Assembly (NCBI RefSeq): GCF_008000775.2
Contig: NZ_CP042905.2
Location: 2,010,001 to 2,042,000, forward strand
Reading direction: 5' to 3'
From: Promethearchaeum syntrophicum
Lineage (GTDB): Archaea > Asgardarchaeota > Lokiarchaeia > Sigyniarchaeales > Promethearchaeaceae
DNA: 32,000 nt
This document shows positions 1-6,519 of this stretch, piece by piece. Position 1 is the stretch's first letter. Each line of letters starts with the position of its first letter. The notes under the pieces are model-generated. The model was not told the DNA's origin, searched no databases, and was given only the letters and a program-made list of their open reading frames with translations. The position numbers were made by a program, and so were the translations under genes.

Positions 1-29
1 AAATCTTAAATGAAAATGATAGGAAGACG

Positions 30-1133
30 TTGAATTCTCTCGGTTCTCCCGTTTCTTCTCAAGAAATTAAGGAAGACAACTTATATTTAAGCTATTATAT
101 TGAGAACGGGGATGTAGATACAATTATTCTTTGGGGCACATTTGTAAAACCCAACACTGCTTTCGGACATTTTCAATTAAGAGGTAGAAAAAAGCCCAAC
201 CATATTCGTTTAACATCTTATGATAACACTGAAATACTAAAATTATTAACATGTTTCCATCATTTGGGCTCTCTTCATTTCTTTTTTTTCTTCGAATCAA
301 CAGACTCACTTGAACTAATTGGAAATCTTAAATATCTTAGGAAATTATCGATCACAAACGATAATTCAATAAAATTACCCAATTCTTTAGAAAAACTTTC
401 TAATCTCACTGATTTGGCAATTACAATTACAGAAAAGCCTTTTCCTTTTTCGGATTCACTAAAAAATCTCCAGAATCTTGAGAAATTTCATATCGGCACC
501 GATCTCAAAAAATTTCCAGAATTCGTTTTGAATTTTAAAAAATTAAAATCCCTAAGCTTAGCATCAAATTCATTACTTTATATTCCTCCTTCCATAGGTG
601 ATCTCCGAAATCTCCAAAAATTGAACTTATACAATAATAAAATATCATCGCTCCCACACACTATCGAAAACTTGCAGAATCTCACTCACATTAACATCGC
701 ACGGAATAATTTTACCACAATTCCCGAATATATTAAAAACCTAAAAAATCTCAAATCGATCGATATAGACAAAAATCCGTTTGTTTCTCTTGAATCATTT
801 AAATTTCTTTATTCCAATCGTAAATTAATTATAAATGGTAAACAGTCCATCGGTAGTCTCAATATTCCAAAAAAGATAAAAAATTTGTGGTTTGATGGAA
901 AATATGATGAAATAATGCAATATTATACCCCTCCCATTACTGAAATAGCTCAAAAATATGCTCAAGATCCTAAATCTCTCACTGGTCTTGAATTTGAACG
1001 TCTGGAAACTGAAGCTACGAACGAGGTGCGCGATATTTTAGAACTATCCTTGCCTAAAGACGACTCAATGTTAAAAATTATAAATGATAAATTAAAATTT
1101 GGCTTAAGAAATGGCCTAAAATTAATGAGATGA
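30..1133 (+). CDS. Leucine-rich repeat (LRR) protein with eukaryote-like typical LRRs; possibly 5'-truncated by the window edge
   Basis: 367-aa ORF. Residues ~95-255 carry about 7 tandem ~23-aa repeats of the form LxxLxxLxLxxNxIxxLPxxI (e.g. LRNLQKLNLYNNKISSLPHTIENLQNLTHINIARNNFTTIPEYIKNLKNLKSIDIDKNPF). The called start is TTG and the frame stays open back to nt 3, so the true start may lie upstream of the window. Confidence 0.8.
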   Translation: MNSLGSPVSSQEIKEDNLYLSYYIENGDVDTIILWGTFVKPNTAFGHFQLRGRKKPNHIRLTSYDNTEILKLLTCFHHLGSLHFFFFFESTDSLELIGNLKYLRKLSITNDNSIKLPNSLEKLSNLTDLAITITEKPFPFSDSLKNLQNLEKFHIGTDLKKFPEFVLNFKKLKSLSLASNSLLYIPPSIGDLRNLQKLNLYNNKISSLPHTIENLQNLTHINIARNNFTTIPEYIKNLKNLKSIDIDKNPFVSLESFKFLYSNRKLIINGKQSIGSLNIPKKIKNLWFDGKYDEIMQYYTPPITEIAQKYAQDPKSLTGLEFERLETEATNEVRDILELSLPKDDSMLKIINDKLKFGLRNGLKLMR

Positions 1134-1200: not shown

Positions 1201-1719
1201 TTAATCTACTTCGCGTTCAATATAATCAAAGAAATCATAAATCCATGCCCGAGGTTTCGAGGCTAACTTCAAACTACCGTCAACCTTGCAATCTCCACTG
1301 AAGAACTCTGCGTCTGTGTTTGGATTACCTTTCATTATTTTTAATTGACAGGCAGGGGTCCAATCCATCCAGATTACATGCTTAACTGGTTGAACCGCTG
1401 CTGGATCATATGTTCCTGTATACATTGCGAGTTTTTGTTCTTCCGGAGTGAATTTAAGGATAAATTTCTTTTCACTACCCCGAACTTCAATAAAATAAGC
1501 AAGAGATTCATATTCTTCGAGATCACTTTCTAAATTTTCCCAATATTCCTGTTTATCTTCATCATCTGATTTTTTAGATGCAAGTGCTGCACCTACAATA
1601 GCTTTGAAGAATACTTCGGCATCTAAAGTCCCGTCGAATGTTCCGGTATCGAATTTTTTCACATATTCATCGATAGCGCTTATCATTTCTTCTGGTGTAA
1701 ACCATTTAGTAATTTCCAT
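1201..1719 (-). CDS. SCP2 (sterol carrier protein 2)-like lipid-binding domain protein
   Basis: 172-aa ORF. The C-terminal half (LAYFIEVRGSEKKFILKF...HVIWMDWTPACQLKIMKGNPNTDAEFFSGDCKVDGSLKLASKPRAWI) follows the SCP2 pattern (beta strands, then l.Gkl.p..aff.Gklk..G.m.la.k). An A12 run at 1164-1175 gives a T12 tract on this strand about 26 nt after the stop. Confidence 0.6.
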   Translation of the reverse strand: MEITKWFTPEEMISAIDEYVKKFDTGTFDGTLDAEVFFKAIVGAALASKKSDDEDKQEYWENLESDLEEYESLAYFIEVRGSEKKFILKFTPEEQKLAMYTGTYDPAAVQPVKHVIWMDWTPACQLKIMKGNPNTDAEFFSGDCKVDGSLKLASKPRAWIYDFFDYIEREVD

Positions 1720-1875: not shown

Positions 1876-2940
1876 TTAGAGATCGATTAAACCTTTCGAA
1901 ATCATACCATTTATCATATCATCGAATATTTTATCGATATTTTTACCAATTCGTGCTGAAGTTTCAAGATATCCGATATTAAGTTCATTTGCAAGGCTTA
2001 ATGCCTCTTCATGAGAAATTTGAATATCTTCCGTTAGATCACATTTGTTTCCGCACATTACAATCTGGATTTCATCGAAATTACTAAAATTGCTTTTAAC
2101 ATCCGAATACCAATTTTTGATATTATCAAATGTTTCGGGTTTAGTTAAGTCAAAAACAATTATCACACATTGCGCCCCGTTATAATAGAGTGAGCGGATT
2201 TTTTGGAATTTAGATTGCCCTGCAAGATCCCATAAAATCATCTGAAATGTTGTATTATTCAGAGCTATGGTTTTTTCAGTGATATTAGCACCAATAGTTG
2301 GGATATAACTCCTTCTAAATGCTCGGTCGGTAAATTGGAGTATCATAGAAGTCTTTCCCACCCCTGGATCACCAATTATGATGGTTTTAAAAGCGAATTC
2401 TCCCTTAATTGGCTCTTCTTGAGCTGTGGGGAATTGTTTTGAATTGTCTACAAATTGTACTTCTTGGGAAGCTAATTTAAGCAAGAATTTTTGCATTTGG
2501 CCATGGAATAATTTAAGTTTATCACGTAAAATTTCTGATACTTCATTTTTCTGGACAAGCGGTAGAAAACCTATGAGAAATTCATTTATATTTGCCTCAA
2601 TGTCATCTTTATATTTATATAGAATAGAATCATCTTTTTCTTCAAATAATACTGAAAGAGTAGCTTCTCTTCTTCCGCCTCTGCGAGTTGAATCCTTCCA
2701 TTCTAGAAGTTTAACAAGCCCTTTCATTTTTAATTGAGGAAAAGACATAATGGCTAATTCATCAGAAATTTTCTTCGAATAGGTAAAAAGGTCAATCGTT
2801 ACACTAGAGACGGTGCTTCTGGTATATTTAGCGACATTTTTTGGATAAAACACCCTCACAAATGGACCGACTTTTTCATCGAATAAGGAGAAAATAATTT
2901 GAAGTGCAATTTCCATGTTATCTTTAATTACATTTCCCAA
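1876..2940 (-). CDS. Two-domain protein: N-terminal longin/roadblock-like module (aa 1-~180) fused to a Rab-like small GTPase (aa ~183-354)
   Basis: 354-aa ORF. G1 GDPGVGKTS, switch I PTIG, G3 WDLAGQ, G4 GNKCDL and G5 ETSAR are all present in canonical order. The GTPase domain maps to about nt 1876-2394. The N-domain fold assignment is inference only. Confidence 0.85.
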   Translation of the reverse strand: MGNVIKDNMEIALQIIFSLFDEKVGPFVRVFYPKNVAKYTRSTVSSVTIDLFTYSKKISDELAIMSFPQLKMKGLVKLLEWKDSTRRGGRREATLSVLFEEKDDSILYKYKDDIEANINEFLIGFLPLVQKNEVSEILRDKLKLFHGQMQKFLLKLASQEVQFVDNSKQFPTAQEEPIKGEFAFKTIIIGDPGVGKTSMILQFTDRAFRRSYIPTIGANITEKTIALNNTTFQMILWDLAGQSKFQKIRSLYYNGAQCVIIVFDLTKPETFDNIKNWYSDVKSNFSNFDEIQIVMCGNKCDLTEDIQISHEEALSLANELNIGYLETSARIGKNIDKIFDDMINGMISKGLIDL

Positions 2941-2989: not shown

Positions 2990-4345
2990 TTAGATTTTTC
3001 TCAGTATAGCGATGAAATAACCGGAGCTTTCTTGGTATCTAGGGTAAAAACGTAACAGATTTTTCAAATCCATTGTATCAAGGCCGTCATAATCTAAACC
3101 GGGGGTTCCATATTGTAAATACTTCTGATCAATTGGGATGGTTTGATATCCAAGTTTTTGAACTGCGTAGGCAAGAATTCCTTCATTTTCTTCTTTTGGA
3201 ATTGTGCATGTATTGTACATTAAAATTCCCCCGGGTTTTACGAGTTGATCAACTATTTTGAGTAGTCTTCGTTGATTTTTAGGGAAATCCAGTAAATCGT
3301 TTTGTGATTTTTCAAGATACAATTTTGGGCGGGTTCCTAAAGCGGAGCATGGAGGATCAAACAACAAATAATTGGCTTTTTCTCTGAGTTCTGGCATTTC
3401 ATTTAAGATTCGTTCTAACTTAATGGGCAATACATCTATATTGTGTAAACGTAAACGTTTAATATCATTTCGTAAATGTTCGAGGCGGTTAGTCGAGCGA
3501 TCTATGGAAACAATTTTCAACCATTTCTCCTTTTTTTGTTCTGAATATAACCAATGACTCCTTTCTGCAATTGCGGTTGTTTTATGACCTGGAGCCGAAC
3601 AAACATCAAAAATAATAGGATTTTTAATTTGAGTGTTTTTAACGATCTCTTCAACAAAAATAGCACAAGCAATTGTTGCAGGTAGTGTTTGCTCGGATAT
3701 CCAGCCTTCCTTATAAGCTGAGCTTGATCGATATTTAGGAAGGGAATATTTTGGCAGAGTTGTATTCACAAGAATCCCGTTCCTATACTTTGGGAGATCT
3801 TTGGATGAAATCATAGTCTCACCGTTTGCTACATGAAATTTCTCAACATTTTCATCCATTTTTTTGGTTCTAGATGTAGGTTTTAATAAAATCGATATTT
3901 CTTCCCCTTTGTCGAATTTATCAGAAGTTCCACAAAAACCTGGGACGAATAAATCAGCCCCAAGCATAATAGATTCTGCGGCATATTTATCTGTATATAT
4001 CTGTTTGGAAAGCATGGGGATCGTTTGATTTTCAATGAATGGGATTTTTAAGGTATTTTCAAGGGGTCCTTGCTCAGAGATTGTTTCTGGAAATTCTAAA
4101 TTCAATTCTTTTAGCAGATCCTTCATGGAAATCTTATTTAAATTCACTCGGAGAAAATAAAATTGAGGTGGAATGGTTATGCTTTCTAAGATTTCCTTAA
4201 GTTCATCCAAATTTGTTATCGTGTTATGAATATGGTCGACGATTGAGGAGGATATAAATTGATTTCTTGCATAGGCATAAATTTCTTCCATATTTCTACC
4301 TTTATCTGGTTTTAAAGTCAAATCTATCCTCAAATTTTCTAACAT
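2990..4345 (-). CDS. NOL1/NOP2/Sun-family RNA cytosine-C5 methyltransferase with PUA-like domain
   Basis: 451-aa ORF. SAM-binding motif CSAPGHKT, motif IV FDPPCSALG and motif VI MYNTCT(IPKEENE). Upstream PUA-like segment IMLGADLFVPGF...KGEEISIL. The architecture matches archaeal Trm4/NSUN-type enzymes. Confidence 0.85.
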   Translation of the reverse strand: MLENLRIDLTLKPDKGRNMEEIYAYARNQFISSSIVDHIHNTITNLDELKEILESITIPPQFYFLRVNLNKISMKDLLKELNLEFPETISEQGPLENTLKIPFIENQTIPMLSKQIYTDKYAAESIMLGADLFVPGFCGTSDKFDKGEEISILLKPTSRTKKMDENVEKFHVANGETMISSKDLPKYRNGILVNTTLPKYSLPKYRSSSAYKEGWISEQTLPATIACAIFVEEIVKNTQIKNPIIFDVCSAPGHKTTAIAERSHWLYSEQKKEKWLKIVSIDRSTNRLEHLRNDIKRLRLHNIDVLPIKLERILNEMPELREKANYLLFDPPCSALGTRPKLYLEKSQNDLLDFPKNQRRLLKIVDQLVKPGGILMYNTCTIPKEENEGILAYAVQKLGYQTIPIDQKYLQYGTPGLDYDGLDTMDLKNLLRFYPRYQESSGYFIAILRKI

Positions 4346-5166: not shown

Positions 5167-6519
5167 ATGAATATTGCAAGGAGTCGTTCGATTCCCACAT
5201 CGAAAACCCTTCCTTTCCCTAAAGATATATTTCTCCTAGGAGAATTTAAATCTTTGGTTAACAGTTTGGTCACTCGATTAGGAATCGCGAAAAGATTTAA
5301 GCCCAGGCTTTATTCATATGCAGATTTTGTGTTTGTTAAATTTTATGCTCTAACAACTTCAATACCAATCGAAAGAGCTTCAGAACGCCTTAATAAATGG
5401 CTGATATTCCAATATTTCAAGAAATACAAGTTAAAACCAAAAAATTTTCAAGACGGAGTTCGTAAACGGCGCTTAGTACCACATCAAACCGATGTTGATA
5501 AATTTTTCAGATTGTTATCTGAAAAAGAAGTCAATATGTTGTTCGGAAATCTATTAATGAACGTTGTACTGAAGGTTAAAGCTAGATGTATCGGAGGATC
5601 AAAACTCAGATTCTTAGTTGACAACACTGAATATGCATATTATGGCAAGCCCAACTCGCTTTTTGAAATTGGAACCAATCGAAAACCAGGAACTCGGTTC
5701 TGTCGCATGTTTCAAGGGCATGCACTTCACGGATCTGGAATGACATTGTTTACTGATTTCTATTTACTTCAAAAAGGGAAATATCGTTGTCTTAACATCC
5801 CTCATTCGGTAGAATGGATAAGGTGGTCGGGAATTAATCTTTCCTATTCTCTCATGGATAGAGAATTTTACCGCGCCGCCTTAATCAAAGATCTTAAAAC
5901 CTGTAAACTTCCAGTTCTTATTCCCGCGAAGAAATATCCCGGAATTAAAAGAAAAATCAAAGATTTCTTGCTCGGAATAGGTCCATTGGTATCAGTTTAT
6001 CACTTTTCACAAACCCAAAAGGTAAAACCATGGCCGAGTTCGGTTCATGTGAATTTTGTCGTTATTGGCCATAAAAATGTATTAGCAACCGAAATACGGC
6101 GCCAATTCAGACAAGGTATTTTAACGTTCGATGAAGCAATAAAACAGTTAGCAGGGTTCTTTACAACTCTCAAACCTTGGAAAAATCATTCACGATGGGC
6201 TAAATGGCTTTCACGAGCATATAAAAAAAGATGGAATGAAGAGACGGGGTTCAGTAAGTTGAATGATATTCACAAAAGTTTCCGGAATCATTATCCGAAT
6301 GTGCAATTATCTCAGCTCTATATGAGAGCAATAATTTATAACAATTGGCAATATTTCAAAAGAGAAGCAGAAAAATCAGGAATTAAAGCCTCAAAGAGAA
6401 CTTTAGCTGTGTTTTTAGAGATATTAGAATGGAGAATCTATAATCTAATTGAACAATCAGTGAGTTATAATTTAAAATATTTACAGAAAAAAAGAAGGAG
6501 GTTATATTTTGAAAGTTAA
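5167..6519 (+). CDS. DDE-type transposase (IS4/ISH3-like, DDE_Tnp_1 superfamily)
   Basis: 450-aa ORF. Candidate catalytic triad contexts are FLVDNTEYAYYG (D), LMDREFY (D) and YKKRWNEETGFSKLN (Y-x2-R-x3-E signature region of IS4-type enzymes). It is bracketed by inverted repeats. Confidence 0.8.
   Translation: MNIARSRSIPTSKTLPFPKDIFLLGEFKSLVNSLVTRLGIAKRFKPRLYSYADFVFVKFYALTTSIPIERASERLNKWLIFQYFKKYKLKPKNFQDGVRKRRLVPHQTDVDKFFRLLSEKEVNMLFGNLLMNVVLKVKARCIGGSKLRFLVDNTEYAYYGKPNSLFEIGTNRKPGTRFCRMFQGHALHGSGMTLFTDFYLLQKGKYRCLNIPHSVEWIRWSGINLSYSLMDREFYRAALIKDLKTCKLPVLIPAKKYPGIKRKIKDFLLGIGPLVSVYHFSQTQKVKPWPSSVHVNFVVIGHKNVLATEIRRQFRQGILTFDEAIKQLAGFFTTLKPWKNHSRWAKWLSRAYKKRWNEETGFSKLNDIHKSFRNHYPNVQLSQLYMRAIIYNNWQYFKREAEKSGIKASKRTLAVFLEILEWRIYNLIEQSVSYNLKYLQKKRRRLYFES

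Follow-up and report, generated by a model that had tools for sequence, protein, structure and literature searches.

A minus-strand gene of the archaeon Promethearchaeum syntrophicum encodes a protein in which, as we regard it with near certainty from architecture and homology, a longin domain of the FLCN/NPRL2/SMCR8 class is connected through a linker to a Rab-like small GTPase (G) domain. The gene lies at 1876–2940 of the stretch of DNA that we analyzed (the window: 32,000 nucleotides, positions 2,010,001 to 2,042,000 of contig NZ_CP042905.2); positions refer to the window unless they are marked as own-genome. We propose, with a probability of roughly 45%, that the longin is a GTPase-activating protein (GAP) module for the Rab-like domain and that it acts through an arginine, R79, whose conservation points to such a role. 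Eukaryotes rely on small GTPases, together with the longin, roadblock and DENN proteins that regulate them, as central switches in membrane traffic and nutrient signalling; to our knowledge no prokaryotes other than the Asgard archaea have large sets of both. Among genomic hints as to which regulator pairs with which GTPase, a covalent fusion is the strongest. Here the Rab-fused longin carries the GP motif and a candidate arginine finger, the two signature motifs of the eukaryotic longin GAPs, which bears on the origin of the FLCN/GATOR1/C9orf72-SMCR8 mechanism.

The reading frame starts with TTG at 2940 of the minus strand, on which all parts of the gene are placed, stays open for 354 codons and ends with a stop codon at 1876–1878. 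The ATG at 2914–2916 is probably the true start, giving a protein of 346 amino acids (aa); it is the start of the called protein and of nearly all homologues, and residues are numbered here from this 346-aa form. We considered whether two genes had been joined artificially through an assembly or frame error. This explanation is refuted: no stop codon interrupts the frame, which lies within a closed contig of 4,324,194 bp, and the 340–360-aa architecture recurs across dozens of independent assemblies. A preliminary description of this DNA, made from its letters, had proposed a GTPase and an unrelated N-terminal module on one chain, and the same two-domain layout was indeed found in 29 close relatives (57–100% identity).

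The protein and its domain layout are already in the literature. It is WP_147663426.1 of strain MK-D1, for which Tran et al. (2024; Commun Biol 7:273, PMC10933270) give a row 'WP_147663426.1-LG' among the aligned MK-D1 Rab-like proteins of Supplementary Fig. 5; LG stands for longin-GTPase, and no other LG row is present there. Over the printed block, residues 269–315, this row is identical to the window protein. As far as that source goes, its authors predicted a longin and a GTPase with AlphaFold2 (AF2), grouped the G domain as Rab-like and gave the label 'LG' only, with no longin class, no mapping of the Gly-Pro (GP) motif and arginine finger, and no family survey. Reports of longin-GTPase(-roadblock) fusions in Lokiarchaea go back to 2016 (Klinger et al. 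2016, as cited in PMC4917890), and NPRL2-like longins and longin-Rag fusions in Asgard archaea were noted in 2020 (Liu et al., preprint). Our literature searches found no statement that places a Rab-fused longin in the GP/arginine-finger class. The explicit mapping given below is a modest addition, which suggests a built-in GAP.

A longin fold joined to a Rab-like G domain

The G domain (residues 173–346, 1879–2400) contains a complete set of G1 to G5 motifs: GDPGVGKTS (G1, 2347–2373), PTIG and the switch I threonine T207, WDLAGQ (G3, 2215–2232), which includes the catalytic glutamine Gln234, NKCD (G4, 2038–2049) and ETSA (G5, 1954–1965). All the motif strings that the preliminary description had quoted for this half (GDPGVGKTS, PTIG, WDLAGQ, GNKCDL and ETSAR) are present. 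Together with these motifs, family hidden Markov models above threshold place the domain in the Ras superfamily: Pfam Ras matched residues 173–346 with an E-value of 1.2e-50 and 171.7 bits (cut-off 21.6), and NCBIfam small_GTP with 91.5 bits (cut-off 42.5), while Pfam Arf (53 bits) and Gtr1_RagA (21 bits) scored well below Pfam Ras. Motifs and scores of this kind lie well past chance expectation. Within the superfamily the domain is closest to the Rabs rather than to Ras, Rho, Ran, Arf or Rag, as judged from the best 60 PDB sequence matches and the best 50 fold matches. All 60 sequence matches were Rabs (E 3.5e-37 to 3e-31; those listed include Rab1A/B, Rab8A, Rab35, Sec4/Ypt1, Rab3, Rab10, Rab22 and Rab5), as were all 50 Foldseek matches of the full-length model, with target-normalised template modelling scores of 0.84–0.90 and 28–38% identity. 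T207 has no adjacent MglA-type arginine. Q234 is conserved in 87% of the family. A retained Q234 and the lack of an MglA-type arginine fit the need for an external finger.

We found no C-terminal cysteine for geranylgeranylation; the chain ends with ...ISKGLIDL directly after the last helix. Because of this missing cysteine, the domain is called Rab-like and not a Rab: its sequence predicts neither prenylation nor a lipid anchor.

The N-terminal domain (residues 1–157, 2446–2916) gave no Pfam or NCBIfam match by itself, Pfam PF11704 (Folliculin) included, in agreement with the earlier view that this half is unrelated to GTPases. The strings that the preliminary description had quoted for this half, IFSLFDEKVGPFVRVFYP, ELAIMSFPQLKMKGLVKLLEW and ATLSVLFEE, are all present. 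An AF2 model built from an alignment of 62 family N-domains was confident (predicted local distance difference test, pLDDT, 88.8; predicted template modelling score, pTM, 0.81) and showed the order β1-β2-α1-β3-β4-β5-α2-α3, followed by a long helix at residues 127–157. The five-stranded sheet and helix α1 span residues 5–92, and the helices that follow are at 93–101, 103–122 and 127–157. This is the topology of a longin (β-β-α-β-β-β-α-α, with no N-terminal helix), and the fold search gave as the nearest solved structure PDB 8yqg, a longin from a Roadblock-Longin paralogue encoded in this genome, at 16–18% identity. Roadblock/LC7 proteins have been contrasted with longins by their α-β-β-α-β-β-β-α topology, in which the N-terminal helix comes first (PMC10933270, as far as that source goes). 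The model lacks such a helix ahead of the sheet, and an identity with Roadblock/LC7 proteins (MglB, LAMTOR) was rejected. Of the folds suggested beforehand for this half, longin/uDENN or roadblock, the model bears out the longin.

In a full-length AF2 model (46-sequence alignment) both domains were well folded (pLDDT 85.4), the pTM was 0.50, and residues 157–169 had a pLDDT below 50. In this model the two domains sit on a flexible tether of about 15 residues, and no fixed contact between them is predicted. The linker (residues 158–172, 2401–2445), predicted to be disordered, nonetheless contains a Phe-Pro pair, F162-P163 (2428–2433), which is conserved in 89–98% of the family.

Relation to the FLCN, NPRL2 and SMCR8 longins

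An exhaustive HMMER search with the N-domain returned 98 cluster representatives, most of them 336–364 aa long. Among 62 family N-domains, Pfam Folliculin matched five (best E 8.5e-6) and C9orf72-like matched four; one family member, P0098, exceeded the Folliculin gathering score. The family profile also retrieved more distant Asgard relatives in other genomes (E 1e-13 to 1e-18), namely standalone proteins of 166–177 aa, proteins of 372–380 aa, one fusion to a helix-turn-helix domain and one Roadblock-Longin protein, and several of these exceed the Folliculin threshold (25.2–28.3 bits against 23.3). Membership of the window protein in the GAP-longin class is argued from this transitive chain of sequence matches together with the fold, the protein itself giving no Pfam Folliculin match.

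The motif by which the class is recognised, GP at the β1–β2 turn, is present as G17-P18 (2863–2868), and a second conserved pair, R79-G80 (2677–2682), lies in the β4–β5 loop, where R79 is the candidate arginine finger. Conservation in the 62-member family is 98% for G17, 97% for P18, 95% for R79 and 90% for G80. In an alignment of 30 diverse Asgard relatives, whose members are 14–34% identical to the window protein, only G17 and R79 are invariant, with P18 and G80 conserved in at least 90%. The profile of these 30 sequences spans the whole SMCR8 longin (residues 58–202) in a weak match (E 0.13), in which GP falls on SMCR8 G68-P69 and R79-G80 on R147-G148 of '...EARGF...'. It was only this profile that reached SMCR8; in single-sequence phmmer searches of the PDB with the paralogue longin and with P0098, no FLCN, NPRL2 or SMCR8 alignment was obtained. 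Three Pfam Folliculin matches place an arginine near one profile position, about 61, if the matches are ungapped. Judging from longin topology, in which the β1–β2 and β4–β5 turns share one sheet edge, the GP turn and R79 should be neighbours. FLCN R164, which we take to lie in '...KDSLARGF...', and NPRL2 R78, presumably after an 'F..F....GP'-like motif, were leads only and are not used as evidence.

The GP motif and the arginine finger were named in 2025 in a study that covers 14 Asgard longins, reports both features in Asgard longins of the FLCN/SMCR8 type and asks on which GTPases the Asgard GP-motif longins act (PMC12290439). The window protein differs from the eukaryotic complexes of this class. 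FLCN-FNIP (Lst7-Lst4), the NPRL2-NPRL3 pair of GATOR1 and SMCR8-C9orf72 are heterodimers that are separate from their Rag or Arf targets and carry a DENN or other C-terminal domain, whereas in the window protein the longin shares one chain with a Rab-like domain, has no known partner and is followed by the linker and the G domain, with no DENN or NPRL2-specific C-terminal domain. The protein would at most work like members of the GAP-longin class and is not an orthologue of FLCN, NPRL2 or SMCR8.

The genome holds four longins of this class, three of them fused to a GTPase (one Rab-like, two RagA-like). The two RagA-like fusions are the MK-D1 'LGR' proteins WP_147663355.1 and WP_147663364.1; their longins belong to this class, both containing GP and the first also Arg-Gly. 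In contrast to the window protein, which is Rab-like with nothing after the G domain, they end in a C-terminal roadblock, and their G domain is RagA/Arf-like, with Pfam Gtr1_RagA scores of 84 and 66 bits. The LGR-type proteins are 471 and 508 aa long; placed at own-genome 1924473–1924922 and 1934790–1935278, they are 10 kb apart, at a distance of 77–88 kb from the fusion gene of the window. The remaining longin of the four belongs to a 268-aa Roadblock-Longin protein (own-genome 1540343–1541149, minus strand), whose longin half is identical to the 8yqg chain. It differs from the window protein in bearing a roadblock at the N-terminus and no GTPase at the C-terminus; GP is present, but there is no arginine at the R79 column. 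By analogy with C9orf72, this arginine-less protein could be a partner of the arginine-bearing longins.

A Roadblock-Longin homologue in a related genome (L038:628–1521) has both GP and 'ARGG'. The 8yqg longin domain is one of a group of solved Lokiarchaeal structures that also includes the Rag-like GTPases of PDB 8yl2 and 9m28 ('LokiRagO' and 'LokiRagM'); our literature searches found no paper behind any of the three entries.

A candidate GTPase-activating module and its alternatives

We propose that the protein would be a self-contained switch in which the longin regulates the Rab-like G domain. Arg79, presented next to the GP turn, would be inserted as an arginine finger into a nucleotide pocket, either that of the protein's own G domain, reached via the flexible linker, or that of another copy of the protein. 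The action of FLCN, NPRL2 and SMCR8 upon Rag and Arf GTPases is the model for this. Because three of the four longins of the class in this genome are covalently fused to a GTPase, the attached domain is the simplest substrate, by a Rosetta-stone argument. It is a possible but doubtful extension, based on the sequences, that the Lokiarchaeal longin-Rab-like proteins are natural single-chain 'GAP plus substrate' switches in which R79 acts on the attached domain. If this is true, they would, together with the longin-RagA-like-roadblock paralogues, identify GTPase partners of the Asgard GP-motif longins, which is the question raised in PMC12290439. The GAP mechanism would then be older than the eukaryotes and would not originally have been restricted to Rag and Arf.

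Several observations weigh against a GAP function. The SMCR8 alignment is statistically weak by itself (E 0.13). The pTM of 0.50 and the disordered linker mean that no docked cis arrangement of the two domains is predicted. At the position equivalent to Ras Gly12 the protein has a proline, P184 (2365–2367; serine in Rab1), which is conserved in 80% of the family and could affect insertion of a finger either way. The eukaryotic GAP longins target Rag or Arf GTPases as heterodimers, and the window protein has no counterpart of their DENN or other C-terminal domain. The longin and DENN regulators of Rabs known to us (DENND1, Mon1-Ccz1, TRAPP, BLOC-3, CPLANE) are exchange factors and not GAPs.

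The last point raises the possibility that the longin is an exchange platform for the Rab-like domain, comparable to DENND1 for Rab35, Mon1-Ccz1 for Rab7 and TRAPP for Rab1. We consider such a guanine nucleotide exchange factor (GEF) role improbable. Exchange-factor longins ranked below GAP longins in the fold matches, and no function of an invariant Arg-Gly is known for longin GEFs. Moreover, the longins of DENND1A/B (uDENN-Rab35), Mon1-Ccz1 and TRAPP differ from that of the window protein in that they are not fused to their GTPase and lack the GP motif, which DENND and TRAPP longins do not have and which is confined to the GAP group (PMC12290439).

Alternatively, the longin may serve mainly as a module for scaffolding, dimerisation or localisation, or it may be a GAP for another GTPase, with its own Rab-like domain as a regulatory or targeting input. 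As a scaffold it would be comparable to the roadblock domains with which Rag GTPases end, or to SRX of the signal recognition particle receptor. We judge this somewhat unlikely. The closest solved structure, 8yqg, was deposited as a dimer; the eukaryotic GAP longins always form longin-longin heterodimers (PMC12290439); and the Roadblock-Longin paralogue, with GP and no arginine, resembles the non-catalytic partner C9orf72. AF2 predicts no cis contact, and a conserved surface (D96, Y100, K101, Y102) and the Phe-Pro of the linker are not explained by a finger mechanism. However, the near-invariance of precisely the two motifs assigned to the catalytic site favours catalysis over mere scaffolding, and since three of the genome's four class proteins have a G domain on the same chain, the attached domain is the simplest substrate. 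Taken together, these data lead us to prefer the GAP module as the working model, and the suggestion in the preliminary description that a regulator fold and a GTPase are fused in an archaeon is supported and can be made more specific, as an FLCN/NPRL2-type longin joined to a Rab-like GTPase.

Distribution and gene neighbourhood

Longins of the GAP-longin class were found in 90 of 201 Asgard genomes. The high-scoring form of about 350 aa was present in all 40 genomes of the sister family, often as two or three copies close together, and in the window's own genome. It was seen in none of the three other genomes of the own family that were searched, which show only a form of about 473 aa. In many assemblies of the sister family, two forms of class proteins lie about 19–20 kb apart on the same contig.

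Upstream of the fusion gene is a gene for an RsmB/NOP2-type methyltransferase with a PUA domain (2990–4345, minus strand), whose place beside the fusion gene is kept in close relatives. Downstream is a 172-aa gene (1201–1719, minus strand), which has no Pfam match and resembles SCP2 by Atlas language-model features only (score 0.91); in close relatives it invariably follows the fusion gene directly. Among these relatives (76–87% identical) the order is PhoU, PiT, the RsmB/PUA methyltransferase, one or two fusion genes, the 172-aa SCP2-like gene, a Zn-ribbon membrane protein, a 139-aa roadblock/longin-like gene and a 95-aa gene. Six 20-kb regions around sister-family homologues that are 34–39% identical had no neighbour in common with the window. 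Because the neighbourhood is kept only in close relatives, gene context does not provide a firm functional partner. A 355-aa gene located between the two copies of the fusion gene in one relative (L022) proved to be unrelated.

At the MK-D1 locus, two leucine-rich repeat (LRR) genes and an insertion sequence (IS) element are additionally inserted. The LRR genes bear on a further reading, that the protein is part of defence or stress signalling rather than a switch in membrane traffic. They adjoin the locus, and the single close paralogue of the nearer one adjoins another longin gene of the same class. In addition, a metagenomic relative of 525 aa (P0045) combines the same longin with a Ras-family G domain and a C-terminal TIR domain (Pfam TIR_2, 7e-19; PADLOC Thoeris ThsB-like). 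A role in defence is nevertheless highly unlikely: PADLOC gave no match for the window protein or its neighbours, the LRR genes are absent at the same locus in close relatives, and of the representatives of atypical length that were scanned, a single one had the TIR fusion.

A few features of the surroundings are recorded here in their own right. A 450-aa transposase-like open reading frame (5167–6519, plus strand) lies between a surface-protein gene and the PiT/PhoU genes; in relatives, PiT is directly beside the methyltransferase, or a different insertion, of the IS605 type, is found. The 139-aa protein (own-genome 2006873–2007292, minus strand), which adjoins the Zn-ribbon polytopic membrane protein, is roadblock/LAMTOR2-like or Fuz-longin-like by Atlas features only. 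The two-member LRR subfamily, absent at the same loci in the relatives L021, L022 and L038, is located within 1–2 kb of two of the four GAP-longin-class loci. Its member in the window is a 379-aa protein (3–1133, plus strand), and the other, a full-length paralogue with 56% identity and the only close one in the genome (own-genome 1539101–1540288, plus strand), lies directly beside the Roadblock-Longin gene in convergent orientation.
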